Source: Eledone cirrhosa (taxonomy: Eukaryota). From it: 64,000 nucleotides of DNA. The notes beneath the pieces are model-generated. The model was not told the origin of the DNA, did no database searches, and saw nothing but the letters and a program-made list of their open reading frames with translations. A program made the translations under genes and the position numbers. The DNA lies in contig OZ024741.1 of the NCBI GenBank assembly GCA_964016885.1, forward strand, positions 143,778,001 through 143,842,000, in the 5' to 3' direction. Below are positions 1,873 to 61,485 of this stretch, piece by piece; position 1 is the stretch's first letter, and every line of letters begins with the position of its first letter.

Positions 1873-2039
1873 TTACCACCAATTTATAGAGAATATCTGC
1901 TTGATATCAACTTTGAGATCAATTAACTTATCTTCAATTTCATTGCACATTTCAACTGGTAAAGAGAGAAACACTCTACATTTGCTTTCATCAACCATTT
2001 TAAGCGCGTCTTTCAAAGCTTCGCTGTTGATTCGAAAAT
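1873..2039 (-). CDS. OXNAD1: OXNAD1-like terminal coding exon E (FRINSEALK...RVFLSLPVEMCNEIEDKL...QIFSINWW-stop)
   Basis: tacAG acceptor in phase 1; ends in WW-stop like OXNAD1 (FEKWW). Confidence 0.8.
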
Positions 2040-2435
2040 CTGTATAGGGGAGACAGAAACAAAGCAAATAAAGGAGGAGTTAGAATTGAAAACAATAGAA
2101 AATCAGAAGCACACACTCACACATATATATAATATCATCATCATCATCATCACCGTTTTACGTCCGTTCTTCCACGCTAGCATGGGTTAGACGGGTTGTC
2201 CTGTTGTGGGCAGTGTCTGGTCGGCTGACCATGCCTTGCTCATACAGGAACTGATCTGGCTTGATTTCTACAGCTGGATGCCCTTCCTAACACCAACCTC
2301 ATTTACAGTGAGTGCTGGGTGCTTTTTCGTGGCGCCTACACGTCCACTTTACAGTGTGGGCTGGGTGCTTTTTTGCCGTGGCACCTCCACGACCACCTTG
2401 CGGTGGGGGGGGGGGGGGCATATTGTTTATATGCT

Positions 2436-5400
2436 TCAGCATGTACCCATGGGAGGTCGGGTACCCTGTATTACTGCGTGACGCCAGAAGTCACGGTCGT
2501 GTGTCATTGACTTTGAGAGGTGTAGTTGGGTAAGGTCGGCTTTTATCACCTCATCCCAAGTCATCTTGGGTCTCCCCACTCCGCGGTTTCCATCAACTTC
2601 TAGTGCTCTGCACCTTTTTATGCAGCTGTCATCCTTCATACGCATCACATGTCCATACCAGCGTAACCGCCTCTCCTGCACGCAGCATTTGATTCCTCTT
2701 ATGCTCAGTCTCTCTCTCAATTCATTTATGCTTTGTCGTTCACGTATATTACTGTTACACATCCATCGGAGCATGCAGGCTTCGTTTCTCTCTAATCTAC
2801 GTAGGTCTTCCACCTTCAGCGCCCAGGTCTCACTACCATGCAACATCGCTGTTCGGATACACGCATCATACAGTCTGCCTTTCATTCTGAGGGAGAAGCC
2901 TTTTGCAGCTAGCAGTGGTAGTAGTTCCCTAAACTTCTTCCATCCCGTTCTTACCCTAGTTATTGTACTTTCTGAGCACCCACCTCCGCTGCTAATTCGG
3001 TCACCTAGGTAGCAGAAGCTGTCTACTGTTTCTACAGGGCCCTCCCAGAGATTGGTGGTACTTGTTTCCTGTGGCTGTTTGCTTGCTGTTTCAGCACAGC
3101 TGCTGCATGTGAATCCTACATTCTTAATTAAGCTTCCTGAGATCCCGCTACATCTCTTGTGTACCCATTGTTTGCATTTGGGGCAAAGAATGGAGTTCCT
3201 ACCTACACCTTTCCTACATACTGAGCAAGGCCATTTCCCTGAGGGGATCTGGGTTCTGTTTTCTCGTCTACTTATAAGGACCTTAGTCTTTGTCATGTTG
3301 ACTTTGAGGCCCTTTCTCTCTAGTCCCTGCTTCCAGGTTTGGAATTTATTCTCTAGTTCTACCATAGATTCAGCTATGAGTGCGAGGTCATCAGCATACA
3401 GGAGTTCCCATGGGCATCCGGTCTTAAACTCCTCCGTTATTGCCTGCAGGACTATGATGAACAGGAGAGGGCTAAGAACAGAGCCCTGGTGGACCCCAAC
3501 CTGTACGCTAAATTCCTCGCTATACTCATTGCCAATCCTAACTTTGCTGACTGCTCCCCTATACATGGCTTGTACCGCTTTCACAAGCCATTCATCTACT
3601 CCTAGTTTTCTAAGAGCCCACCAGATTACTGCACGTGGAACTCTGTCAAAGGCTTTCTCAAGGTCGACAAATGCCAAGTAGAGTGGCTTACTTTTAGCTA
3701 GGTACTTTTCCTGTAATTGCCTCACAAGGAAGAGCGCATCAGTGGTGCCTTTCCCTGGAACAAACCCAAATTGCATCTCGTCTATATTCACCCGGTCCCT
3801 AATCAGCTGTGCTATAACTCTTTCTGTTACTTTCATGACCTGGTCCATCAACTTTATACCTCTATAGTTTCCTCTATCTAGTGCATCGCCTTTACCTTTG
3901 TAGCAGTTGACAATGATGCTACTGCACCAATCTTTTGGTATGGCCCCCTCTAGTATTACCTGGTTAACGATACGTGTGGTTATAGTGTGACCTACAGACC
4001 CAGATGCCTTCAGCATCTCGGCAGCTATACCCGATGGACCGGTTGCCTTCCCTATCTTCATATCTCTGATTGCCTTACTTACTACGCTGCCGCTGACTTG
4101 TACTGCTGGTCCCTCTATAGGGTCTACGTGGGGTAGGGTCTCTTCTTCCCATGCATTCTCCTCATTTAGTAATCTATCATAATGACTCTTCCATGCATCT
4201 TTCTTCTCAGCACTTGTGAGGGCAAGCTCACCTTTATCATTCCGGATACACTTCTCTCCAATGACATCACAACTATCTCTGACACACTGCCTCGCAATCT
4301 TGAATACCTCCTGTTTCTGGTCCTCACGTTGTAAAACATGCTTGAATTTTCTATCCTCTGCTTCCCTCCTAGCTAAGTATACTTGTCGCCTAGCTTCCCT
4401 CTTGGTCTCTATGTAATGTACCCTGCTCCCCCCGTTCTTCCATTCTTTCCATGCCTGTCTCTTGGCCTTGACTGCTTCATCTACCTTATTGTTCCACCAC
4501 CAAGTCACTCTCCTCCTGCTTGAAGTCTTACTCCAGCCACAAACCTCATCCGTCGCCTCTAGTAAGTTATTTTTTAGGAACTCCCAGTTCTCTTCTACGT
4601 TAAATGTCTCTATCTGTTCTTCTTTACTGTCGTAGGCGTTGAGTAAAATATCTTTAAATCTGTTACTGGTTGAGGGGACTTTCAGCTTCCAGATCTTTCT
4701 TCTCCAGGTTGGCCTCTGTTTCAGGGCTCGTCTAGTTCTGACCGTGAGGTCGCTGACAACTAAGCTATGTTGGGATATACATTCCTCACTAGGGAAGGCT
4801 TTTGTGTTTACGACCGTCCATCTGTCACGTCCTCTGATGAGGATAAAATCTAACTGACTAGAGTGCTCCCCTGATCTATAGGTGATCAGGTGGTTGTCGG
4901 GTTTTTTAAAGTTTGTGTTACATATCGACATGTCATTGGCGTCGCAGAATTCTAGAAGTCTGAATCCTTCCTCATTCCTTGTGCCAACTCCATGGCCTCC
5001 ATGTACTCTATTGAAGCCGTCGCAGTGTTTACCTACGTGTCCGTTAAAATCTCCTGCAATGATTAGGAAGTCCTTGTCGTCTGTTAGAGCAGTAGTGTGT
5101 ATTAGGGACTCGTAAAACCTATCCTTAAGTTCGTCTGGCAGCCCCGATTGGGGTGCGTAAGCTGATATTATTGTGGTAATTGTCTTATTCAGGACTAGTC
5201 TGAGTTTAATGATTCTTGCATTTACCCTGTACACTGAGATTACTTTATCTACCCACTTGCCAGCTAATAGTATACCTACACCACCCATCCCATCGTCATT
5301 TCCCACCCAGAAAAATTTGTAGCACTGGCTTTTTCCTACAAGGACTCTAGCAGACCCTCCTCTCCATCTAGTCTCTTGCACACAGCATACATCAACTTCC

Positions 5401-5555
5401 TTTCGCTCTAGCATTTCTACGATTTCTCCTGCTCTTCCTTTCATTGAGCCTACATTGATGGTACCAACTCGGAGTTTTGGGCATTTGTCGACACTCGTAG
5501 GGGAGGGTCTCTGGGTTGGCGCTTCACGTGGGTGCTTGGTAGCTCGCAGATTCAT
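2436..5555 (-). CDS. RTE ORF: APE endonuclease, reverse transcriptase and a PHD-type C4HC3 finger
   Basis: Endonuclease motifs CVQETRW, SAYAPQ, GDFNGH, LDFIL, SQH; RT motifs FVDLEKAFD, GVHQGSVLSP, LYADD; CxxC-CxxC-HxxC-CxxC at ~3096-3228; HGSETW and RLRWYGHV. No stops. Confidence 0.97.
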   Translation of the reverse strand: MNLRATKHPREAPTQRPSPTSVDKCPKLRVGTINVGSMKGRAGEIVEMLERKEVDVCCVQETRWRGGSARVLVGKSQCYKFFWVGNDDGMGGVGILLAGKWVDKVISVYRVNARIIKLRLVLNKTITTIISAYAPQSGLPDELKDRFYESLIHTTALTDDKDFLIIAGDFNGHVGKHCDGFNRVHGGHGVGTRNEEGFRLLEFCDANDMSICNTNFKKPDNHLITYRSGEHSSQLDFILIRGRDRWTVVNTKAFPSEECISQHSLVVSDLTVRTRRALKQRPTWRRKIWKLKVPSTSNRFKDILLNAYDSKEEQIETFNVEENWEFLKNNLLEATDEVCGWSKTSSRRRVTWWWNNKVDEAVKAKRQAWKEWKNGGSRVHYIETKREARRQVYLARREAEDRKFKHVLQREDQKQEVFKIARQCVRDSCDVIGEKCIRNDKGELALTSAEKKDAWKSHYDRLLNEENAWEEETLPHVDPIEGPAVQVSGSVVSKAIRDMKIGKATGPSGIAAEMLKASGSVGHTITTRIVNQVILEGAIPKDWCSSIIVNCYKGKGDALDRGNYRGIKLMDQVMKVTERVIAQLIRDRVNIDEMQFGFVPGKGTTDALFLVRQLQEKYLAKSKPLYLAFVDLEKAFDRVPRAVIWWALRKLGVDEWLVKAVQAMYRGAVSKVRIGNEYSEEFSVQVGVHQGSVLSPLLFIIVLQAITEEFKTGCPWELLYADDLALIAESMVELENKFQTWKQGLERKGLKVNMTKTKVLISRRENRTQIPSGKWPCSVCRKGVGRNSILCPKCKQWVHKRCSGISGSLIKNVGFTCSSCAETASKQPQETSTTNLWEGPVETVDSFCYLGDRISSGGGCSESTITRVRTGWKKFRELLPLLAAKGFSLRMKGRLYDACIRTAMLHGSETWALKVEDLRRLERNEACMLRWMCNSNIRERQSINELRERLSIRGIKCCVQERRLRWYGHVMRMKDDSCIKRCRALEVDGNRGVGRPKMTWDEVIKADLTQLHLSKSMTHDRDFWRHAVIQGTRPPMGTC

Positions 5556-5804
5556 ATTTCATCTATTGATTCAGAGTTGCTCGTGTATTCCCAGCTCATC
5601 CATCCATAACGGTGGGAAAATTGAGGGCTAGAAGGACAGTGGTGGTGGGGTAATGGCAGGGTGTGTTGGGATGCGCCAGAGGAGGAGAGAGTTAGTTAGG
5701 CAGGTAGTAGCAGCAGCAGCAGTGGAAATGGCATGCTAGGTTTGATTGGTCGAATAGACTATGGTGGTGTGTGGGGGTGGGGGGGAGGGGGAGGGAAATT
5801 GTGA

Positions 5805-8800
5805 GGTAGGAACTGAGGGTCGCATGGTAAATATCCAAGTTAATACTACATCAGTAAAATTAACAATAATAACGTCATGAAAAAAGCTACTAAGAGAAAC
5901 CCTCGAAAATTTATCGCTAATACAGCAGGGAAAATTTAACGCTAATACAGCAGGGAACATCATAATATTAACGACATGAAAAAGCTACTAAGAGAAACCC
6001 TCGAAAATTTATCGCTAATACAGCAGGGAAAATTTAACGCTAATACAGCAGGGAACATCATAATATTAACGACAATATGTAGGCTAAAATACCTTCGTAG
6101 ATTAGGTGGATGGCTGGCTGGGAAAATTTGAAACAGCTCTACTGGTACATTTTAGCAGAGAAGAATGGCAAAGTGTCTTATCTCTTCAATATTTTCAGAT
6201 TGAATGAATTAGGTTAAAGACAGGGTAGTAAGCCTTAAAGAAGTGCATAGAGGGGGGGGGGGTAGGAACTGAGGGTCGCATGGTAAATAACTGAGAGAGA
6301 TACAATAGGATTAGAATACCGCATGGTAAATATCCAAGTTAATAAGTTAATACTACATCAGTAAAATTAACAATAATAACGTCATGAAAAAAGCTACTAA
6401 GAGAAACCCTCGAAAATTTATCGCTAATACAGCAGGGAAAATTTAACGCTAATACAGCAGGGAACATCATAATATTAACGACATGAAAAAGCTACTAAGA
6501 GAAACCCTCGAAAATTTATCGCTAATACAGCAGGGAAAATTTAACGCTAATACAGCAGGGAACATCATAATATTAACGACAATATGTAGGCTAAAATACC
6601 TTCGTAGATTAGGTGGATGGCTGGCTGGGAAAATTTGAAACAGCTCTACTGGTACATTTTAGCAGAGAAGAATGGCAAAGTGTCTTATCTCTTCAATATT
6701 TTCAGATTGAATGAATTAGGTTAAAGACAGGGTAGTAAGCCTTAAAGAAGTGCATAGAGGGGGGGGGGGGGGTAGGAACTGAGGGTCGCATGGTAAATAA
6801 CTGAGAGAGATACAATAGGATTAGAATACCGCATGGTAAATATCCAAGTTAATAAGTTAATACTACATCAGTAAAATTAACAATAATAACGTCATGAAAA
6901 AAGCTACTAAGAGAAACCCTCGAAAATTTATCGCTAATACAGCAGGGAAAATTTAACGCTAATACAGCAGGGAACATCATAATATTAACGACATGAAAAA
7001 GCTACTAAGAGAAACCCTCGAAAATTTATCGCTAATACAGCAGGGAAAATTTAACGCTAATACAGCAGGGAACATCATAATATTAACGACAATATGTAGG
7101 CTAAAATACCTTCGTAGATTAGGTGGATGGCTGGCTGGGAAAATTTGAAACAGCTCTACTGGTACATTTTAGCAGAGAAGAATGGCAAAGTGTCTTATCT
7201 CTTCAATATTTTCAGATTGAATGAATTAGGTTAAAGACAGGGTAGTAAGCCTTAAAGAAGTGCATAGAGGGGGGGGGGTAGGAACTGAGGGTCGCATGGT
7301 AAATAACTGAGAGAGATACAATAGGATTAGAATACCGCATGGTAAATATCCAAGTTAATAAGTTAATACTACATCAGTAAAATTAACAATAATAACGTCA
7401 TGAAAAAAGCTACTAAGAGAAACCCTCGAAAATTTATCGCTAATACAGCAGGGAAAATTTAACGCTAATACAGCAGGGAACATCATAATATTAACGACAT
7501 GAAAAAGCTACTAAGAGAAACCCTCGAAAATTTATCGCTAATACAGCAGGGAAAATTTAACGCTAATACAGCAGGGAACATCATAATATTAACGACAATA
7601 TGTAGGCTAAAATACCTTCGTAGATTAGGTGGATGGCTGGCTGGGAAAATTTGAAACAGCTCTACTGGTACATTTTAGCAGAGAAGAATGGCAAAGTGTC
7701 TTATCTCTTCAATATTTTCAGATTGAATGAATTAGGTTAAAGACAGGGTAGTAAGCCTTAAAGAAGTGCATAGAGGGGGGGGGGGTAGGAACTGAGGGTC
7801 GCATGGTAAATAACTGAGAGAGATACAATAGGATTAGAATACCGCATGGTAAATATCCAAGTTAATAAGTTAATACTACATCAGTAAAATTAACAATAAT
7901 AACGTCATGAAAAAAGCTACTAAGAGAAACCCTCGAAAATTTATCGCTAATACAGCAGGGAAAATTTAACGCTAATACAGCAGGGAACATCATAATATTA
8001 ACGACATGAAAAAGCTACTAAGAGAAACCCTCGAAAATTTATCGCTAATACAGCAGGGAAAATTTAAAGCTAATACAGCAGGGAACATCATAATATTAAC
8101 GACAATATGTAGGCTAAAATACCTTCGTAGATTAGGTGGATGGCTGGCTGGGAAAATTTGAAACAGCTCTACTGGTACATTTTAGCAGAGAAGAATGGCA
8201 AAGTGTCTTATCTCTTCAATATTTTCAGATTGAATGAATTAGGTTAAAGACAGGGTAGTAAGCCTTAAAGAAGTGCATAGAGGGGGGGGGGGGGGGGTAG
8301 GAACTGAGGGTCGCATGGTAAATAACTGAGAGAGATACAATAGGATTAGAATACCGCATGGTAAATATCCAAGTTAATAAGTTAATACTACATCAGTAAA
8401 ATTAACAATAATAACGTCATGAAAAAAGCTACTAAGAGAAACCCTCGAAAATTTATCGCTAATACAGCAGGGAAAATTTAACGCTAATACAGCAGGGAAC
8501 ATCATAATATTAACGACATGAAAAAGCTACTAAGAGAAACCCTCGAAAATTTATCGCTAATACAGCAGGGAAAATTTAACGCTAATACAGCAGGGAACAT
8601 CATAATATTAACGACAATATGTAGGCTAAAATACCTTCGTAGATTAGGTGGATGGCTGGCTGGGAAAATTTGAAACAGCTCTACTGGTACATTTTAGCAG
8701 AGAAGAATGGCAAAGTGTCTTATCTCTTCAATATTTTCAGATTGAATGAATTAGGTTAAAGACAGGGTAGTAAGCCTTAAAGAAGTGCATAGAGGGGGGG

Positions 8801-11800
8801 GGGTAGGAACTGAGGGTCGCATGGTAAATAACTGAGAGAGATACAATAGGATTAGAATACCGCATGGTAAATATCCAAGTTAATAAGTTAATACTACATC
8901 AGTAAAATTAACAATAATAACGTCATGAAAAAAGCTACTAAGAGAAACCCTCGAAAATTTATCGCTAATACAGCAGGGAAAATTTAACGCTAATACAGCA
9001 GGGAACATCATAATATTAACGACATGAAAAAGCTACTAAGAGAAACCCTCGAAAATTTATCGCTAATACAGCAGGGAAAATTTAACGCTAATACAGCAGG
9101 GAACATCATAATATTAACGACAATATGTAGGCTAAAATACCTTCGTAGATTAGGTGGATGGCTGGCTGGGAAAATTTGAAACAGCTCTACTGGTACATTT
9201 TAGCAGAGAAGAATGGCAAAGTGTCTTATCTCTTCAATATTTTCAGATTGAATGAATTAGGTTAAAGACAGGGTAGTAAGCCTTAAAGAAGTGCATAGAG
9301 GGGGGGGGGGGGTAGGAACTGAGGGTCGCATGGTAAATAACTGAGAGAGATACAATAGGATTAGAATACCGCATGGTAAATATCCAAGTTAATAAGTTAA
9401 TACTACATCAGTAAAATTAACAATAATAACGTCATGAAAAAAGCTACTAAGAGAAACCCTCGAAAATTTATCGCTAATACAGCAGGGAAAATTTAACGCT
9501 AATACAGCAGGGAACATCATAATATTAACGACATGAAAAAGCTACTAAGAGAAACCCTCGAAAATTTATCGCTAATACAGCAGGGAAAATTTAACGCTAA
9601 TACAGCAGGGAACATCATAATATTAACGACAATATGTAGGCTAAAATACCTTCGTAGATTAGGTGGATGGCTGGCTGGGAAAATTTGAAACAGCTCTACT
9701 GGTACATTTTAGCAGAGAAGAATGGCAAAGTGTCTTATCTCTTCAATATTTTCAGATTGAATGAATTAGGTTAAAGACAGGGTAGTAAGCCTTAAAGAAG
9801 TGCATAGAGGGGGGGGGGGGGGTAGGAACTGAGGGTCGCATGGTAAATAACTGAGAGAGATACAATAGGATTAGAATACCGCATGGTAAATATCCAAGTT
9901 AATAAGTTAATACTACATCAGTAAAATTAACAATAATAACGTCATGAAAAAAGCTACTAAGAGAAACCCTCGAAAATTTATCGCTAATACAGCAGGGAAA
10001 ATTTAACGCTAATACAGCAGGGAACATCATAATATTAACGACATGAAAAAGCTACTAAGAGAAACCCTCGAAAATTTATCGCTAATACAGCAGGGAAAAT
10101 TTAACGCTAATACAGCAGGGAACATCATAATATTAACGACATGAAAAAGCTACTAAGAGAAACCCTCGAAAATTTATCGCTAATACAGCAGGGAAAATTT
10201 AACGCTAATACAGCAGGGAACATCATAATATTAACGACAATATGTAGGCTAAAATACCTTCGTAGATTAGGTGGATGGCTGGCTGGGAAAATTTGAAACA
10301 GCTCTACTGGTACATTTTAGCAGAGAAGAATGGCAAAGTGTCTTATCTCTTCAATATTTTCAGATTGAATGAATTAGGTTAAAGACAGGGTAGTAAGCCT
10401 TAAAGAAGTGCATAGAGGGGGGGGGGGGGGTAGGAACTGAGGGTCGCATGGTAAATAACTGAGAGAGATACAATAGGATTAGAATACCGCATGGTAAATA
10501 TCCAAGTTAATAAGTTAATACTACATCAGTAAAATTAACAATAATAACGTCATGAAAAAAGCTACTAAGAGAAACCCTCGAAAATTTATCGCTAATACAG
10601 CAGGGAAAATTTAACGCTAATACAGCAGGGAACATCATAATATTAACGACATGAAAAAGCTACTAAGAGAAACCCTCGAAAATTTATCGCTAATACAGCA
10701 GGGAAAATTTAACGCTAATACAGCAGGGAACATCATAATATTAACGACAATATGTAGGCTAAAATACCTTCGTAGATTAGGTGGATGGCTGGCTGGGAAA
10801 ATTTGAAACAGCTCTACTGGTACATTTTAGCAGAGAAGAATGGCAAAGTGTCTTATCTCTTCAATATTTTCAGATTGAATGAATTAGGTTAAAGACAGGG
10901 TAGTAAGCCTTAAAGAAGTGCATAGAGGGGGGGGGTAGGAACTGAGGGTCGCATGGTAAATAACTGAGAGAGATACAATAGGATTAGAATACCGCATGGT
11001 AAATATCCAAGTTAATAAGTTAATACTACATCAGTAAAATTAACAATAATAACGTCATGAAAAAAGCTACTAAGAGAAACCCTCGAAAATTTATCGCTAA
11101 TACAGCAGGGAAAATTTAACGCTAATACAGCAGGGAACATCATAATATTAACGACATGAAAAAGCTACTAAGAGAAACCCTCGAAAATTTATCGCTAATA
11201 CAGCAGGGAAAATTTAACGCTAATACAGCAGGGAACATCATAATATTAACGACATGAAAAAGCTACTAAGAGAAACCCTCGAAAATTTATCGCTAATACA
11301 GCAGGGAAAATTTAACGCTAATACAGCAGGGAACATCATAATATTAACGACAATATGTAGGCTAAAATACCTTCGTAGATTAGGTGGATGGCTGGCTGGG
11401 AAAATTTGAAACAGCTCTACTGGTACATTTTAGCAGAGAAGAATGGCAAAGTGTCTTATCTCTTCAATATTTTCAGATTGAATGAATTAGGTTAAAGACA
11501 GGGTAGTAAGCCTTAAAGAAGTGCATAGAGGGGGGGGGGGGTAGGAACTGAGGGTCGCATGGTAAATAACTGAGAGAGATACAATAGGATTAGAATACCG
11601 CATGGTAAATATCCAAGTTAATAAGTTAATACTACATCAGTAAAATTAACAATAATAACGTCATGAAAAAAGCTACTAAGAGAAACCCTCGAAAATTTAT
11701 CGCTAATACAGCAGGGAAAATTTAACGCTAATACAGCAGGGAACATCATAATATTAACGACATGAAAAAGCTACTAAGAGAAACCCTCGAAAATTTATCG

Positions 11801-12408
11801 CTAATACAGCAGGGAAAATTTAACGCTAATACAGCAGGGAACATCATAATATTAACGACATGAAAAAGCTACTAAGAGAAACCCTCGAAAATTTATCGCT
11901 AATACAGCAGGGAAAATTTAACGCTAATACAGCAGGGAACATCATAATATTAACGACAATATGTAGGCTAAAATACCTTCGTAGATTAGGTGGATGGCTG
12001 GCTGGGAAAATTTGAAACAGCTCTACTGGTACATTTTAGCAGAGAAGAATGGCAAAGTGTCTTATCTCTTCAATATTTTCAGATTGAATGAATTAGGTTA
12101 AAGACAGGGTAGTAAGCCTTAAAGAAGTGCATAGAGGGGGGGGGGGGGTAGGAACTGAGGGTCGCATGGTAAATATCCAAGTTAATACTACATCAGTAAA
12201 ATTAACAATAATAACGTCATGAAAAAAGCTACTAAGAGAAACCCTCGAAAATTTATCGCTAATACAGCAGGGAAAATTTAACGCTAATACAGCAGGGAAC
12301 ATCATAATATTAACGACATGAAAAAGCTACTAAGAGAAACCCTCGAAAATTTATCGCTAATACAGCAGGGAAAATTTAACGCTAATACAGCAGGGAACAT
12401 CATAATAT
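5805..12408. repeat. Higher-order tandem array of ~13 units of ~510 bp (three of ~605 bp)
   Basis: The marker GTGCATAGA(G)n occurs 12 times (6243 to 12127). Each unit has 2 or 3 copies of a ~98-bp subunit, which itself holds two CGCTAATACAGCAGGGAA copies. Confidence 0.98.
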
Positions 12409-12419
12409 ATATGTGTGTC

Positions 12420-12780
12420 TGTGTGTGTTTATGTATTTGTTTTGCATGATTCTTGATGGGAAATCGTGTGTTGAAACCGATATTGTTATATATGTGGATG
12501 GTCATATTGCTAGGATTGCCAATAAAAAGAAACCTACGCACCATATGATTTTTACTTTTTTATTTTATCTTTATTATTAGTTATTTGTTTTTTTGTCAAA
12601 GTTCTTTTGCCTCACATTCTGTGACATCATCAATGACTATCTGTTACTTCATCTTCTCTTTTCAAAGACTAAAATAGAGTTACAGATTGAAACCAGAAAG
12701 AAGAGGGTGCACAAAATAGGAGAGATAGTCATTGAGGGGGTCACAGAATGTGTGGCGAAACAACTTCGACAAACTAAAGA
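12420..12780. mobile_element. Decayed Penelope-like terminal-repeat fragments, including an inverted pair of degenerate hammerheads
   Basis: 12440-12545 is the reverse complement of 15440-15540. 12593-12665 and 12700-12775 are inverted arms resembling the 15281 hammerhead. Confidence 0.6.
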
Positions 12781-12814
12781 ATGAACTGGTATTAAAGATA
12801 AAGTGATCTATCTA

Positions 12815-12849
<35 letters not shown>

Positions 12850-13114
12850 GTGTGTGTGTGTGGGGGGGGGGGATGTTTGACGCATCATTAAACAAAAAAG
12901 TTCTCTAAACAATCTAAAAGGAGCAGATAATTTATCATAGGAGCAGCTTATACCACAGGATCAATTTCTGGTGGGATGATATCAAAAGGGGGTAACAGCA
13001 AATAATTGGATGTTTTAATATAAATATGAACACTTTAAAGGGACCTTTTTTTATATCATAGAACCAGAAGCGGTTTTAGGTGGGTTGGTATTAAAAGGGT
13101 TAAGAGATACATAC

Positions 13115-13205
13115 TTTTAACATTTGGTTCATCCATTTTCTGTTGTGTCACAAAAAATTGGCAACTTATATTTTGGTAGGTTTTCTCCATTTCTTCAAGT
13201 TTCTC
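13115..13205 (-). CDS. OXNAD1: OXNAD1-like coding exon D (EKLEEMEKTYQNISCQFFVTQQKMDEPNVK)
   Basis: ggcAG acceptor, A|GTATGT donor, 91 nt, phase 0 to 1, compatible with exons C and E. Resembles OXNAD1 ..I.C...VTKQ. Confidence 0.75.
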
Positions 13206-14235
13206 CTGCCGAAAGAGAGGGACAATTAAAATCATACTAAAGAAATGTGAACAGAGAAAGATGGTCAATTAGAGAGCCTTTACATGGTCACTCGACTTGC
13301 TATAAATAACCAACTCTCTTTCAAATCCTGATATTTAGGTGTTCCAGTTGTTTGGTAAACGGAAATGTCCATTCGTTAATTTATCATTTAAGTAGCTGAG
13401 TATTCCTCAGAGACGTGTACTTTTCACCTAATTCCCAGGGAAACTCAACATAACACAGCGGACAAGATTGGTCCTTCCTTTGAATTTTACGAACAGTCAA
13501 ATCAGCTAACTTAATTTAACTCACAGGGCTTGGATCGACATGATGCTATTTGTAAAAATACACTTGCTTTCCTAAGTGGCCACACTGTCTGACTAAACTA
13601 AAAACCTTATGGTTGCAAAGCGAAATTAGTAACCATTCGGCCATGCTAGTTTCTTAAAAATGGGAAGATACATCAGATAATATTTGTTTTAAATACACTT
13701 GGGTCATAGTTGACCTAAGGCTAAACAACAACAACGACTAGAACAGCGACAACAAAAGAGCAACAACAAAAGCAACAACATCAATAAGACAACAGCAATA
13801 GCAGCAACAACAGTAACGACAACAGCAAGGGTAACAATAACAGCAATAACAACAAATCCAATGGGAAATGTTTTAAGAAGTGCAATGTTAAACGGTAATG
13901 AGACGTATACTAGATACATAGGATTTGTAGAGACTAGAGAAGATGTACGTTGAGTACGATCCCCTTTCCATGTTTTGGTGGAGCACAAATGAACTGGGAG
14001 AATAGTTTGACATTAGAGTCATTAATTGTATACTTTTTTGATTGGAAGAAGAGGATAGTATACATGCCTTCTCCAAGCCTACTTTAGACACATGGACAGT
14101 CATTTTGAAGGTGAAAGTTGATTAAATTGACCTGTAACGGAATTCTTCTATGTTAATTCTTCCAATGTGAAATAAAGTGTCTTGCTCAAGGAAACAACAC
14201 ATATACATATATACATATACATATAAATACATATA

Positions 14236-14267
<32 letters not shown>

Positions 14268-14332
14268 CATATATATATACATATACATATATATATATAT
14301 ATACACACATATATACATATACATATATACAT

Positions 14333-15546
14333 ATGGTAAATAATGACATAAATGGGACCTGCCCCTTGTATAGGAGCAAATTTGGAATAGAATAGAAAGA
14401 ACTAGGAACAAGGCCAATAGAATAAACTCATGGTATGATAGCAATAAATACCAGAGTGTAATTTTCATCAATACAACCCCTAGAGGCGAACTAGCCTACA
14501 AATTTAGAAGGGCCCTAAATAAACATAATCTCAATATTAAGATAGTAGAAACACCTGGTACCTCCGTAAAAACACTTATTAGCAAGACATACCCGTTCCA
14601 AAGACCCTCATGTATAGATAAGAAATGTATAACCTGTAAAATAAGCCCCCATATTAACTGTAAAACTAGAAATGTAGTGTATAGCATAAGATGTACTGAA
14701 GGACAATGTAGAAACAAAAATATAGTGTACATAGGTGAGACAGCTCGTAGTATAGGGGAACGAATAAATGAACACTGGCGAGACCTCCAAGATAATAAAG
14801 AATCATCTGTGCTCTACCAACATGCTAAGATAGAACACAGGGGTAGATTAGAGAGCATAGAAATAAAAATAGAATCCACACACAGAAAAGACGCAATGTT
14901 TAGGCAAATTACAGAGGCAGTAAGCATAAAAGGATTAAAACCAAAATTAAATAGAAAATATGAGTGGAACAGCAACATCACAACTTACAATTAAGGACAA
15001 AATGAAAACACACACACACATAGAACAAACAACTTACAATTGAAAACACACACAAAATGAAAACACACACAGGACAAAATGAAAACAAACAACCAACCAA
15101 CAATAAATAAATAAATAAACAAATAGAAAAATATAAATAGAAAAATAGAAAAATGAACACCAACACACACAGACACCCGGATGTGGCGCATGCGCAAACT
15201 GAGCACACAACACACACACAGAAACAAAATGGCGTAGGATAGAAGAAAGGAAAGGCACAGAAACGAAGAGGGGAATCCCCAGTCACTGAAGAGGTCACAG
15301 AGTGTGTGACGAAAGGACTATGACTATATATATAAACAACTATCTGGTTGTGGGACCAACCAACCAACCGGAAATTTATAAGTTTGTAAATTTGTAAATT
15401 TATAAATTTATAAATATATAATAAATTGAAGTGAAAGCAACTGGTGCGTGTGTTTCTTATTGGCAACATGACCCTCCCAAAGTATAACAATATCGGTTTC
15501 AACACACGATTTCAGATAAAGAATCTTGCTAAACAAATTCAGAAAC

Positions 15547-17139: not shown

Positions 17140-17712
17140 AGAAAGGAGAGCAAGGATAGTAAGGAGAGTGAGAAGTGAAAGGAGAGTAAGGAGAATAGGG
17201 ACAGCAAGGAGCAAGGAGTGTAAGGAAAACAAGGAGAGCAAAGAGCAAGGAGACTAGGGAGAGTAAGTTGAGTAAGGAGAGCAAGGAGAGTAAGGAGAGC
17301 GAGCTGTGTAAAGAGAGCAAGGAGAGCAAGGAGAGCAAGCAGAGCAAAAAGACTAAGGACAGTAAAGAGAGCAAGGAGTGTAAGGAGGGTAAGGAGAGTA
17401 AGAGGAGAAAGGGGAGTTAGGCAAGCAAGGAGAGCAAGGAGGGCAAGGAAAGTAAGGAGAGTAAGGAGAGCAAGGAACAAGGAGTGTCCCTCTTCCTCCC
17501 CTTCTCACAACATCCTGTTCCTTTCTTCATTTTCCTCCCCATTCTCCCCTTCTACCCATCTTTTTCATCACCAGGAAGAAAGAAGGGAAGTGGAGTAAGG
17601 GAAGAAAGGGGAGGAGAGTGAAGAAGGGGAAGAAGGGAGGAAAGGAAGGAAGAGGGCAGGGGAGGAAGGGAACGAGTGTGAAGAAGGGGAGCAACGAGAG
17701 TAAGGAGAACAT
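17140..17712. repeat. 9-bp AAGGAGAGY minisatellite with a short pyrimidine-rich (inverted) segment
   Basis: Direct inspection. Confidence 0.9.
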
Positions 17713-28469: not shown

Positions 28470-31400
28470 GGGGCATAGGGGGTTTGGACAGGGGTATTAC
28501 CCTTGATGGTTGACAGCTGCACCCTAACTGGCCCCCACCCATCCCCTAAATCTCTCACGTGTGGCTCCAAGCGCCATGCCCCGGCACACCGCTTCAGCTG
28601 GTGGACTGAACCACGTGAGGGGGTGGTGTTGACACGGCACCACTAGGCGTATGAGCTTGTAGTGACCTACATTCCGCGGGCTCACATACATTCTCTGTGC
28701 GTGATTTGGCTCAGTTCAGCCAATCAGCGCCAGTAGAAGAGGATGTATCCCTACGCGCCCTGAGGAAGAAATTCCCCGCGAAGATTTGAAGAATCTCTCT
28801 CTTGTACCAGAAACTTCAAGCCAGCAACACGCATAATGTAACAGTGAGATATTGCACCCTAGCCTCGCCGGCTTAACGGCGCAATGGCACATTCCCTTTT
28901 GTAACCGCTTTTTATCTGTAACTTCAACCATATAAATAAACAAACATTTCATCTCTAATTACTGCTGTTGAAATCATTGTTATGTTACTCGTGTCTCAAT
29001 AACATCTATAATCCATGCTGCTGGAATTGGCGACCTGACGAAAGGAATATTGTAAATAGATGGTAAATAGATCGAGGGACCTTCCCTCACGTCTATGTCA
29101 ACAAGATAATCCAACGAGGATACTATCACTTACCACACTGGCAACTAACGACCTTCAATCATCTACCCTGTTAAAGTAACGACCACTGATTCTACCACCC
29201 TGCTAAAGTGGCGACTACAATAATAACTAATACTGTTAAAAGCTTCAACAAGGAAGCCACTGGTTAAAGCAGAAGGAAATCCTCCCTCGGCACCGGTCCA
29301 GGACTGAAGGCGACCCACACCATATTCCATGGCCATCTGTTTGCAGTTCTACCAGAGACTACTCCACTTACTGTCTCTTTACTAAATGTCAGTGGTTGGG
29401 CTTCAGGTTAGCGACCTGTTCCCGGTAAAACTCTCCTGCTACGAAAACAATTCATAGTGCATCAGATTCAAATTCCAAGCAGTCAGGAGAACGGTTGTCT
29501 CTAACCGGAGATTGTGTGACGTGTGTCGGCAAAGGTCTCAATGAGGAAGCCGACATCCTGAGGACCAGAATTCTGTCTGCAAAAACAACCACACGTATTG
29601 GATATTGGAACATAAGAACTATGTACCAACCATCCAAACTTGCGCAAGTTATCGGAGAAATCGAGGCCTACAAAATTAACATCCTGGGCCTCAGCGAGGT
29701 CCGCTGGACTGACTCTGGGAAGTTTGTCCATGAAAACAAGACCATCCTGTTCTCGGGCCGTCAGAACGGGACCCACCGAGATGAAGTTGCAATCATCATG
29801 GACAGGGCTGCCAGTAGTGCCCTTGAGGAGTGGACTCCTATCAACGAACGCCTAATGACAGCAAGATTCACCACATCACATGCAAAGGTCACCATAGCTC
29901 AGTGCTATGCTCCAACCAACGAACATAACGACGATGACAAGGACGCTTTCTACCAGCAACTACAAGATGTTGTCAACAAAACCCCACGTCATGACATCCC
30001 GATCATCATGGGAGACATGAACGCACAGATCGAGGGAAGCAGGGTTGGCTTTGAACATGTCCTTGGCCCCCATGCTTATGGAAACCGCACGGACAACGGG
30101 GACAGGTTTGTCCAGTTCTGTTCCATGAACAATATGAAAATCGGCTCGTCACTATTTGACCACAAGAACATCCACAAGGTCACATGGGCTTCGAACGACC
30201 ACAGGACCAAGACGCAAATAGACCACATTGCAATTGGCCCAAGTTGGAGAACTCCTTACCTGCAGGACGTCCGAGTCTACCGAGGCGCAGATGTCTGCAG
30301 TGACCTCTATCTATCTGTTACCAAACTTAAAATCAGACTGAGGAAGCAGAAGAAGAAAGCATCCACTACAAGGCGTTTTGACACTACCAAGCTGAAGAAC
30401 GGTTACACAGAAGCACAGTTCGAGGCTGCTTTGAGGAACAGATTTGCTGTCCTTGAGGAGTCTGCGCCAGGCTCGGTCAATTGGTGGGAGGAAATGAAGA
30501 AGACCATGGAAGCTGCAGGGGAAGAAATCCTGGGCTACAGGAAGTCCCTCAGAGAAGCTTGGGTCAGCGACAACACCTGGCAGCTGATTAATGAAAGGAA
30601 AGCCCTACACCAGCAGAGGCATGCCACTACCCCAGAGGCCATCAAAGTTTATCAGCAGTATGTTGAGAAGGACAAGGAGGTGAAACGCAGCGCCCAAAAG
30701 GACAAACGAATGTGGCTTGAGAGTAAGGCAGAGGAGGCACAAGCAGCTGCGGCACGCAATGACATGCGCTCTGTGTACCAAATTGCCAAGAAAATCACCG
30801 GCAGCTCTAGAGCTAATTCAGGCCCGGTGGAAGCGAAAGATGGGCTGAACATTTCAAGGAAGTCCTCAACCGAGCGGAGCCACGTATGCCAGCAGACACT
30901 AAGGAACCTACTAGTTTGTTACCTATCAATACTGATGACTTCACCGAGAAGGAAGTCCGCATGGCCATCAAAACCCTTAAGAATAACAAGTCACCAGGTA
31001 TGGATGGCATTTCTGCTGAAATGCTGAAGTCAGGAGGCGATAGCATGGTCAAGTGGATGGGCCACTTATGTAATCTTGTGTGGAACACGGGTGAAGTCCC
31101 AGAAGACTGGAGAAACGGAGCGGTTGTGTATCCCCAAGAAGGGCAACCTTGCCGATTGTGACAACTGGAGGGGAGTGACACTTCTCTCCATACCGGGGAA
31201 GGTCTATTGTCTGGTGATCCTGAACCGCATACGTGGCATGGTAGACCGGGGACTGCGAGAACAACAGGCAGGGTTCCGACCAAAACGTTCCTGTGCAGAG
31301 CAGATCTTTACGCTACACCGCATCATTGAGAGGTACAACGAATTCAAGAGGCCCCTCGCCATCAGTTTCATCGATTTCTCCAAAGCATTCGATAGCATTC

Positions 31401-32082
31401 ATCGACCGTCACTCTGGAGCATCATGCATGAGTATGGTCTGCCCCAGAAAGTCATTTCGGCAATCAAACAGATTTACGCAAACTCCAAGTGCTGCATACG
31501 GACAGAGGATGGTTACAGTGACTGGTTTGAGGTGGTTACTGGCGTGCGTCAAGGTTGCTCGCTCTCTCCAATTCTCTTTGCCATAGCCATTGACTGGGTA
31601 CTAAGAAGAGCGTCTAAAGACCAGGGTATATCTTGGGTGGGAGAGCAAAAGTTGTCTGACCTGGACTTTGCGGACGATATTGCTGCACTTGCAGAGAGCA
31701 CAGCTGACCTGCAAATCATTGTGAACAATATCAATGTCGAAGCAGGAAGCTTAGGTCTCAATATCAGTGCCAAGAAGACCAAAAGTATGTTATCTGGGAC
31801 ACACCCATCACCAACTAGTGTCTTCATTGAACAGGGGGAGGTGGAGATAGTGGACAACTTCACCTACCTAGGAAGCTCCATTAACAATGAGGGCACCATG
31901 GACAGTGAACTGCAATGTAGAATGGGAAAGGCTTCAGCAGCATTTAACCAGCTTGACAAGATCTGGAAGAGCAGGAAGTTCACCCTCAAAACAAAGATGA
32001 GATTCTATAACAGCAACATGCTGTCCACACTCTTGTACGGAAGTGAAACATGGCACCTTAAGACCAGCCAAGAGAAGAAGTT
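28470..32082 (+). mobile_element. Decayed RTE-clade LINE (APE plus RT), frameshifted and 3'-truncated
   Basis: GYWNIRTM, LSEVRW, QCYAPT, GDMNA, IDHIA; then IDFSKAFDS, GVRQGCSLSP, DFADD, YGSETW across three frames (29495, 30886, 31076). Confidence 0.92.
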
Positions 32083-32220
32083 GATAATAAATTTAAAATG
32101 ATTTGATTGAAATAAAAAGACACGCCGAAATTATTTCTACATAAAAAAATTATATCAAAAATTTTAATGTTTTGGTATATCATTAAGGTGGAATTTATTA
32201 TAAAAGGTTGGGAACCGCTG
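32081..32220. mobile_element. Right end of a hAT/Charlie-like MITE
   Basis: AAAAGGTTGGGAACCGCTG terminus followed by the typical target ATCTAGAC. Confidence 0.65.
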
Positions 32221-39540: not shown

Positions 39541-41620
39541 TACAAGGGAAAAGGTAACAGGAATGATTGTGGGAACTACAGAGGTATATCATTGCTTTCT
39601 GTCGTAGGGAAAGTTTTATGTAGGGTGCTTCTGGACCGTCTGCTGACACACATTGCAGATTGTATTCTTCCTGAAAGTCAATCTGGTTTTCGTGCTGGAC
39701 GCGGCACTACTGATATGATCTTCTCAACTAGACAGCTCCAGAAGAAGTGAATGGAACAAGGTTTGGATCTGTATCAGGTTTTTGTCGATCTGACAAAAGC
39801 TTTCGATACTGTTAACAGAAATGCATTATGGAAGATTCTCCAGAATCTTGGTTGCCCTGATAAGTTCCTTGCTTTAGTTAGGTCTTTCCATGACGACATG
39901 AAGGCTTGGGTTAATGTCGGAGCCTATCTCAGTAAAAAATGGAGTGAAACAGGGGGATATTCCAGCACCGACCCTCTTTGCCATATACTTTGCAATAGTT
40001 TTCTATATTGCATTCAGGAATTGCGAGCATGGTGTTTACATCCGATATCGAACCTCAGGCAGCATATTTAACATCAGGCGCTTTGCTGCAAAGACAAAAG
40101 TATTTACATCAATCATAAGAGACCTCTTGTATGCAGATGATTGCGATCTTGTAGCGCACACAGAGAGTGATATGCAGCACATTTTGAATGCATTTTCTGA
40201 CGCTTGCACTGCCCTAGGATTGACTGTCAGTCTCAAGAAAACCGTCGTCATGTACCAACCTTCCCCTGGTAAGCAGTACAGTGAACCAAATATCTATGTG
40301 TATGGTAAACGACTTGGAGTGGTTGATCAGTTTGTCTACCTGGGAAGCACTGTCAATCGATACGGCAACCCTGATAGTGAAATCTCACTTAGGATTAGGA
40401 AAGCAAGTGATGCTTTCGGAAAGCTAGAAAGGCAACTCTGGGGTCGGCGAGACATATGCAAGAAGACAAAGGTAAAGGTGTACAGGGCATGTGTGCTCTC
40501 TTCTCTTCTTTATGCCTGCGAGACCTGGGTCACATATCGACACCACCTTAAGCAATTGGAGCGTTTCCATCAGATGTGTCTCAGACGGATCCATGGCGTT
40601 CACTGGAGGGACCACATCAGTGATATCGAGATTTTGAAAAGCTCTATGTGTGACAGTATAGAAGCTCTTGTGCTTAAGCAACGACTCCGTTGGAGTGGTC
40701 ACCTTGCCAGGATGAAGGATTCTAGAATACCAAAACAACTCTTTTGTGGAGAGTTAGTTAAAGGAAAACGACCTCCACATAAACCAAAAAAGGATTCGTT
40801 GAAAACCTCTTTGAAAGACGCTAACATTTGTGCTGATACATGGAAAAATGTTGCTGCTGATCGTAATAAATGGAGAAAGACTGTATACGAGGGGAAAGTT
40901 GCCTTTGAGGCATCTCGAATCGCATACGAGAAAGTAAAGAGGGATGTGAGGAAGGGCATTACTGTTGCATTTCCAGACAGCGAAGGTCCTCCTATGGCGC
41001 TTCTGTGCGAGACTCTGCTTCAGCAAAGCTGGACCCGAAAGTCATCTTTGCAGTTATAAAGTGAGACCAGTGGTTGGCTATCAGGCTGCTGTTGGAGATG
41101 CTACTCATCATGCCTGCCAAACATGTGGTAGAGAATGTAAATCAGCAGGAGGGCTCAAACGGCATGCAAACGTACATGAACTCCAACCACAGCCGGCTAT
41201 TCCCAGTGAATGTTTTGGTTGCCAACTCTGTGCAAGACATTTTAGATCATTGGCTGGGCTAAAAAGTCACATCCGATCGCAGCACTGTTAATTGTTATCG
41301 CGCACGCGCGCATATGTGTGTGCATTATTATTATTATTGTCGGTCGTGGATTAGCAGTATCGGTAGAGGGTCGGACGCCATGCTTTCCAGCATAGTTACG
41401 TCCCTTTACGATCTGAGTTCAAATCCCGCCGAGGTTGACTTTGCCTTTCATCCTTACGGGGTCGATAAAATAAAGTACCAGTAATGCACTGGGTAATTGC
41501 TGGCCTTGTGCCTAAAGTAGAAACAATTATTATTATTATTGTCGTTATTATGTTGTTTTTTTTTTGTTTTTTCGTGCAATGGCCATACTCGATAACGAGG
41601 GGGCAGCCATCATCATCATG
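39541..41620 (+). mobile_element. 5'-truncated RTE (BovB-like) LINE with RT and C-terminal C2H2 fingers
   Basis: [41 protein letters not shown]; CxxC..H fingers at ~41115-41285; stops and frameshifts; (CAT)n tail. Confidence 0.93.
41341..41535 (+). mobile_element. tRNA-derived SINE nested in the RTE 3' UTR
   Basis: Full family match, flanked by (TTA)n. Confidence 0.92.

Positions 41621-55697: not shown

Positions 55698-61485
<5,788 letters not shown>

Follow-up and report, generated by a model that had tools for sequence, protein, structure and literature searches.

The tandem array at 5805..12408 of the window (the whole stretch of 64,000 nucleotides of Eledone cirrhosa DNA analysed here) lies on the minus strand and is, almost certainly, an integral part of the LINE next to it (Table 1). 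With moderate confidence, we propose that it represents the 5′ terminal part of an RTE-like LINE family that is young, that its units are likely promoters, and that the stack likely came from one template at or just after insertion.

Table 1. Positions of the LINE, its tether and its 5′ array within the window
Feature	Positions	Strand	Remarks
LINE 3′ UTR with a terminal (GAT)5 tail, adjoining an (AT)n run	2136..2435	-	no clear target-site duplication
Intact single ORF of 1039 aa, with APE endonuclease and reverse transcriptase followed by a PHD finger	2436..5555	-	ATG at 5555
Tether, 249 bp, non-repeated, C-rich, between array and ATG	5556..5804	-	CCAAT box 5743-5751 also kept in the sister RTE family
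Proximal unit, short head (without 43 + 8 bp)	5805..6260	-	short head is proximal in 92/106 arrays
Predicted core promoter, proximal unit: initiator TCATTC, A+1 = 6205, G at +24, DPE AGACA at +28 to +32	6173..6207	-	motif
11 inner units, long head	6261..12146	-	two or three 98-bp subunits of 25-bp repeats plus a G/C run of variable length
Distal partial unit, short head; 5′ end of the insertion	12147..12408	-	joined to an AT/GT microsatellite

The array contains 12 complete units and a partial 13th of 262 bp, cut at 12408, with heads at 5805, 6261, 6771, 7277, 7784, 8296, 8802, 9311, 9821, 10429, 10934, 11540, and 12147. The initial annotation had described about 13 nested units of ~23, ~98, and ~510 bp: the 13 heads were found and the two larger periods hold, whereas the innermost period is 25 bp, not 23. 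Inner units measure 505-512 bp, or 606-608 bp in the three that contain a third 98-mer. They were said to differ almost only in G-run length, subunit number, and one substitution near 8067. This is what we observed, with G-runs changing from unit to unit and the sole substitution among window units (C>A) placed at 8068. The shorter variant reported for the first and last units (~50 bp missing) corresponds to the same 51 bp absent from both, as two separate pieces of 43 and 8 bp, and the distance to the ORF start, given as about 250 bp, was measured as 249 bp. The unit is 36% GC and presents 12 CpG, with 16 expected. An Rfam search of the array and unit matched no family, and no ribozyme was seen in the unit.

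At the family level, an assembly artefact –a concern that the initial annotation had raised– is ruled out by the junction between tether and unit, which recurs at more than 150 other loci, and by short-read contigs from an independent run, which cross this junction, loop from unit to unit, and include the long-head insert; the count of 13 units is the reading of the assembly. A contig from another run joins window position 2039 to 13115 and thus represents an allele without element and array, which may be either the empty site or a deletion.

The LINE beside the array was correctly annotated as intact; its 1039-aa ORF on the minus strand encodes an endonuclease, a reverse transcriptase, and a PHD finger. 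The ORF is intact (1030 aa or more) in 67 of the 96 copies in full view, and the family is very young. Two features expected of RTE elements were found: a single ORF with APE endonuclease and reverse transcriptase and without ORF1, and a microsatellite 3′ tail, which is (GAT)2-8 at copies with the 3′ end in view. No second ORF of 150 aa or more was found between 5558 and 14374, and Pfam detected no RNase H domain in the reverse transcriptase ORF. From this architecture and the general features of the clade, we take the element to be a probable RTE; the 120 listed homologs (45-55% identity) carry no clade names. No clear target-site duplication was seen at the window. Since (AT)n adjoins many 3′ ends (46 of 87), short duplications could be hidden there.

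Bov-B and RTE-2_OV, as described in the accessible parts of PMC13295347, PMC9115989, and PMC10294476, also combine endonuclease and reverse transcriptase in one ORF, with a body of ~3.4-3.7 kb and a microsatellite 3′ tail. Our element differs from them in its PHD finger after the reverse transcriptase, and its long 5′ array, and no clear target-site duplication was seen for it. For RTE-2_OV, a 5′ UTR of ~600 nt is given, and the word 'tandem' is absent from the accessible text of its paper, which is one of those three. The titles and abstract openings listed by literature searches, together with the accessible parts of PMC9115989, PMC13282606, PMC10294476, PMC13295347, and PMC2861651, contain no 5′ monomer array of an RTE; supplements, Repbase, or Dfam could hold one.

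The initial annotation let its reading depend on whether the unit goes with other copies of this RTE. It accompanies the element genome-wide, in variable number. There are at least 500 near-full copies of the element and 519 exact matches of the tether pattern. A search with the unit gave 279 matches from the 38 places scored among 354 candidates. At 35 other loci selected in this way, 33 share the junction with the same LINE (98-99.8% identity), one is joined to it via a deletion, and the remaining one extended beyond the fetched sequence. Selecting loci by the tether escapes the selection bias of unit-selected loci, and we took the first 84 tether matches on chromosome C1, in order (4 already in the set and 80 new). 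In this sample, 74 of the 80 copies run into the unit at the same junction and six stop at the tether end; at least one full unit was present at 52, at least two at 34, and at least five at 12. In a further 60 loci, the unit follows the tether in 53, and the other seven are truncated in the tether. Overall, array size ranges from a fragment to 15 or more units.

Given the shared junction at 74/80 and 53/60 loci, we rejected a chance neighbour or a satellite born at this locus. The tail of the unit has 1742 exact matches genome-wide, and the first 100 all lie beside an RTE (by eye; two were confirmed on fetched sequence), which led us to reject free satellite DNA as well. The other option of the initial annotation, a satellite being born here from a LINE 5′ UTR, is not needed: five or more units are found at 12 of the 80 copies, and none of those first 100 unit copies is away from an RTE.

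Regarding its origin, the stack at the window descends from one template unit. We conclude this because one base variant fills 12/12 window units and is found elsewhere only at a single near-identical locus, L212. This copy presents 3 differences over 3290 body bases against the window copy, bears a single unit followed by an incomplete long head, and carries a base otherwise unique to the window copy among 113 bodies. Other arrays behave similarly, with locus-specific variants in all units at L052, L053, L117, and L121, and in all but the proximal unit at L118 and L048, where the variants are located in the head. Repeated copying of a template that consists of one whole and one partial unit would produce this pattern. 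Since 113 bodies were compared out of more than 500, the sample may have missed a parent whose array was uniform beforehand.

Growth long after insertion should leave the units of an array more alike than the divergence of the bodies would predict. Across the 41 arrays that contain at least three full units, we counted 51 unit-private substitutions, with 48.9 predicted from the divergence of the bodies (31 against 37 without the two richest loci), the body-private counts coming from a partial family sample (113 of 500+ bodies). The unit-private and expected rates were 0.156% vs. 0.166% in the 7 oldest arrays and 0.050% vs. 0.056% in the 17 middle ones, and unit and body rates correlate across loci (rho 0.45). 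Moreover, copies without any private body change already have a mean of 6 units, and array length drops with copy age (rho -0.47, n = 72), a fall that could also come from subfamily differences or loss. These results fit arrays that date from their insertions and speak for stacks built at that moment; we think it likely that each array was built then or just after. For these analyses, duplicate rows (L075, L116, L130) were dropped; L072-L075, L092, L108, L137 (mis-called ends), and L133 were left out of the age correlation; and the copies at L073, L112, L129, L136, and 10 replicate loci extended past the fetched sequence.

Later change in unit number does occur. L129 and L130 are the two copies of one duplicated locus, 750 kb from each other, and they differ by 3 units. 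A SINE-like insertion of 192 bp is restricted to their unit 5, and its persistence in 1 of 15 units speaks for building at insertion. The 3-unit difference looks like loss, because the extra units bear their own private changes. Across arrays, 18 variants are common to subsets of units, some of them in nested periods (L136), which counts against building at insertion.

At the functional level, the motifs in the sequence make it rather probable that each unit carries an internal promoter with an initiator plus a downstream promoter element (DPE). The consensus strings are TCAKTY for the initiator and RGWYV for the DPE at +28 to +32, and the unit contains both. The predicted A+1 in the other full units lies at 6712, 7222, 7728, 8235, 8747, 9253, 9762, 10370, 10880, 11483, and 12089. 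Initiator and DPE stand at the exact spacing on the element strand, with a chance in shuffles of 0.8% (0.12% when the G at +24 is included), and the motif is intact in 344 of 350 units. An older subfamily, with 166 pattern matches, has TCACTC at this place, which departs from the strict initiator by one base, and keeps the motif spacing in 10 of 16 units. Its identity with our unit is 82% in the motif block, 24% just upstream (43% gapped), and 47% just downstream. The accessible part of PMC4748587 gives the same initiator-DPE spacing (DPE at +28 to +32).

The 5′ ends of copies were also compared with the predicted start. Two older-subfamily copies end at +1, and the inverted arm of L162 begins within 5 bases of it. 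In the discovery set, 12 of 56 loci have their 5′ end within 21 bases around +1 (3.7 expected, scan p = 0.024), and the initiator-DPE motif was spotted after this pile-up. A replicate fixed beforehand gave 5/38 (2.5 expected, p = 0.11), which is not significant, and 7 ends there lie a short way upstream of the initiator; pooling both sets gives 17/94. The test left out ends in the 98-mer block (71 of 165), and most ends lie elsewhere than +1. AT microhomology was rejected as the cause of the pile-up, since weighting by end dinucleotides barely moves the expectation (6.8 vs. 6.3). Because the replicate is not significant, we consider the promoter likely rather than demonstrated. The one RNA run holds 0.07 of the words of the stretch, and runs X6 and X7 give partial cover. 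The monomeric 5′ promoter array that the initial annotation suggested by analogy with rodent L1 stands for its structure –tandem monomers that travel with the element genome-wide–, while motif, conservation, and end positions suggest its promoter function.

We envisage that transcription would start inside a unit, giving an RNA in which a partial unit at the 5′ end precedes a whole one. The copying polymerase, most likely the reverse transcriptase of the element, would then slip back repeatedly, each time leaving the partial unit for the corresponding position in the next unit downstream. At each slip the unit would be copied again, and the stack would grow during insertion, the RNA template being left intact by a reverse transcriptase without a Pfam RNase H domain. 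A slip in the 98-bp block would produce a long-head unit and a varied 98-mer count. Slipping within the identical 29 bp of the head would yield a short-head unit, like the one found distally in the window array; in 15/90 arrays, short heads recur out of order. Slips of this kind would restock the promoter units lost to internal starts and 5′ truncation. We put forward slipping of the reverse transcriptase on linear RNA as a tentative route, at slightly under even chances. We are equally cautious about its consequence, that the LINE's own reverse transcriptase might re-copy the leading half-kilobase of its RNA as many as a dozen times, or more, per insertion, writing a fresh promoter stack. The sequence fits first-strand slips and second-strand mispairing alike. 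At L162, L163, and L034, the 5′ end bears unit sequence in inverted arms, which resemble twin-priming inversions and suggest that the units were on the RNA; a script detected fold-backs in 1/102, and those noted by eye were therefore set aside.

Some junctions are harder to reconcile with this route. At L057, L062, L171, L133, and L047, one non-homologous junction within the unit is amplified 4-17 times (14-17 at the first three). Those at L062 and L057 present 1-5 bp of microhomology and are repeated 16-17 times, and the same kind of junction is repeated 4 times at L047. The amplified junctions form new short tandem arrays inside the 5′ end at these five loci. Independent slips on linear RNA explain them poorly; a circular or DNA template, or later growth, does so better.

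Growth of the arrays after insertion, as DNA, by unequal exchange or replication slippage from one unit plus a fragment, with the units still being promoter monomers, seems unlikely to us. It would yield the same single-template pattern, and it was proposed for a 50-monomer mouse array (in the accessible part of PMC6454616); L129 and L130 differ by 3 units, and the nested shared variants of L136, like the repeated odd junctions, fit copies of copies. However, old arrays are un-homogenised, with as many unit-private as body changes; copies without private body change are already at their mean of 6 units; length falls with age; the difference between L129 and L130 looks like loss; and a distal short-head unit requires two events. 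Building at insertion by another path, either rolling around a circular one-unit RNA or cDNA or second-strand mispairing, is in our judgement quite improbable. It accounts for the 14-17 exact repeats of one non-homologous junction at L057, L062, and L171, and there are precedents in the accessible parts of two sources: for mouse L1, mispairing of the second strand has been put forward as a route (10.1101/2022.08.06.500894), and a bacterial reverse transcriptase makes tandem repeats from one RNA region (PMC12039810). Yet a fixed circle should give constant units, and both 98-mer number and head type vary within arrays; the lack of an Rfam match or visible ribozyme in the unit also speaks against it.

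We give very little credence to the units being passengers without promoter function, read through from a source element downstream of a tandem repeat, or an assembly error at this locus. In favour of this, the majority of 5′ ends are spread over the unit, the end test did not reach significance in the replicate, and the G-run differences may include sequencing error. Against this, the initiator-DPE block is selectively conserved across subfamilies, one master array cannot yield fixed variants specific to each locus, and a sister family bears a different monomer at the same position; as for an artefact, independent short-read contigs contain both the junction and the unit loop.

That sister, a more distant RTE family of the same genome, shares the C-rich sequence and CCAAT motif of the tether. 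Its monomer, apparently unrelated to ours, recurs at 530-666 bp in 9 of 30 loci, and its 57 matches across the genome include 6 pairs and no triple. Homology between both monomers was considered and is unsupported (score 36 vs. 31.6 +/- 4.9). In the older subfamily, units occur as pairs at 274-592 bp. Long arrays are a mark of the youngest family.

The layout found here –tandem 5′ monomers in variable number, a tether, and transmission with the element– is that of rodent L1. Mouse L1Md (A, Tf, and Gf; ~200 bp) and rat L1 (~650 bp) have a monomeric 5′ UTR and a tether of ~250 bp, according to the accessible parts of PMC5381506, PMC6454616, and 10.1101/2022.08.06.500894. As in them, unit number varies per copy, the outermost unit is partial, the proximal variant is position-specific, the tether is ~250 bp long, and related lineages have different monomers. 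By class they differ: rodent L1 belongs to the L1 clade with two ORFs, and its monomers are CpG islands with YY1 sites, whereas this is a single-ORF RTE-like element of an invertebrate host, with AT-rich units (36% GC) and a predicted initiator and DPE. The nested 25/98/510-bp structure and the near-identical units per locus, traceable to one template, are further differences. By analogy, the element would work like a rodent L1 monomer promoter, outside that family.

Internal initiator and DPE promoters are described in the accessible parts of PMC4748587 and PMC2861651 for jockey, Doc, G, I, and F of Drosophila and for Bombyx SART1/TRAS1. The promoter predicted here is likewise TATA-less, with its DPE at +28 to +32 inside the element; unlike those LINEs, described with one promoter at the 5′ end, it repeats the motif in every unit. 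The bacterial reverse transcriptase DRT2 would offer a parallel in building, from one RNA region, tandem repeats that recreate a promoter (which for our element is inferred); it belongs to a prokaryotic defence system with unrelated role and sequence, and we use it as an analogy only, from the accessible part of PMC12039810.

A LINE with its promoter in 5′ monomers loses some at each jump, and this family bears on how mouse LINE-1 regains them. In the accessible part of 10.1101/2022.08.06.500894, the daughters of five mouse L1 donor-daughter pairs lost monomers and four regain routes are given as speculation; that of PMC6454616 calls the regain mechanism unclear. Here, hundreds of near-identical and often intact copies make the source unit of each array traceable and datable, and a 3.7-kb single-ORF element is of a size that can be tested in cells. 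The monomer-and-tether design is thereby extended to a second LINE lineage, in which related families within a single genome carry three different monomer sequences. If the proposed mechanism is true, stacks made by reverse transcriptase would be a natural, high-copy demonstration of the template-switch route so far only proposed for mouse L1.

Regarding the flanks, (AT)n abuts the distal end at 61 of the fetched loci, a strong tie of insertions to this repeat. Other short tandem repeats flank L040, L045, L061, and L101, and copies stand head to tail with another RTE or within a satellite at L072-L076 and L117. To the right of the window array, Penelope-like remnants occupy 12409-15546, with a GIY-YIG ORF at 14374-14994, and two hammerhead-like folds, one at 15279-15330 and the other, degenerate, at 12725-12775; 12427-12574 is ~75% like 15410-15546 inverted. 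A tie between the array and these remnants was rejected, as they have no similarity to the unit and other loci are flanked differently.

Elsewhere in the window, at least a fifth of the words of 4800-6300 occur in runs under six organism labels, which may reflect relatives, horizontal transfer, or contamination. At 17515-17635, an almost perfect inverted repeat of ~110 bp gave weak scores against many microRNA models. Two further broken LINE ORFs of other families are found on the plus strand (29429-32101 and 39902-41059), and an AT-rich 109-bp tandem repeat at 58511-58887 also flanks the insertion at L117.
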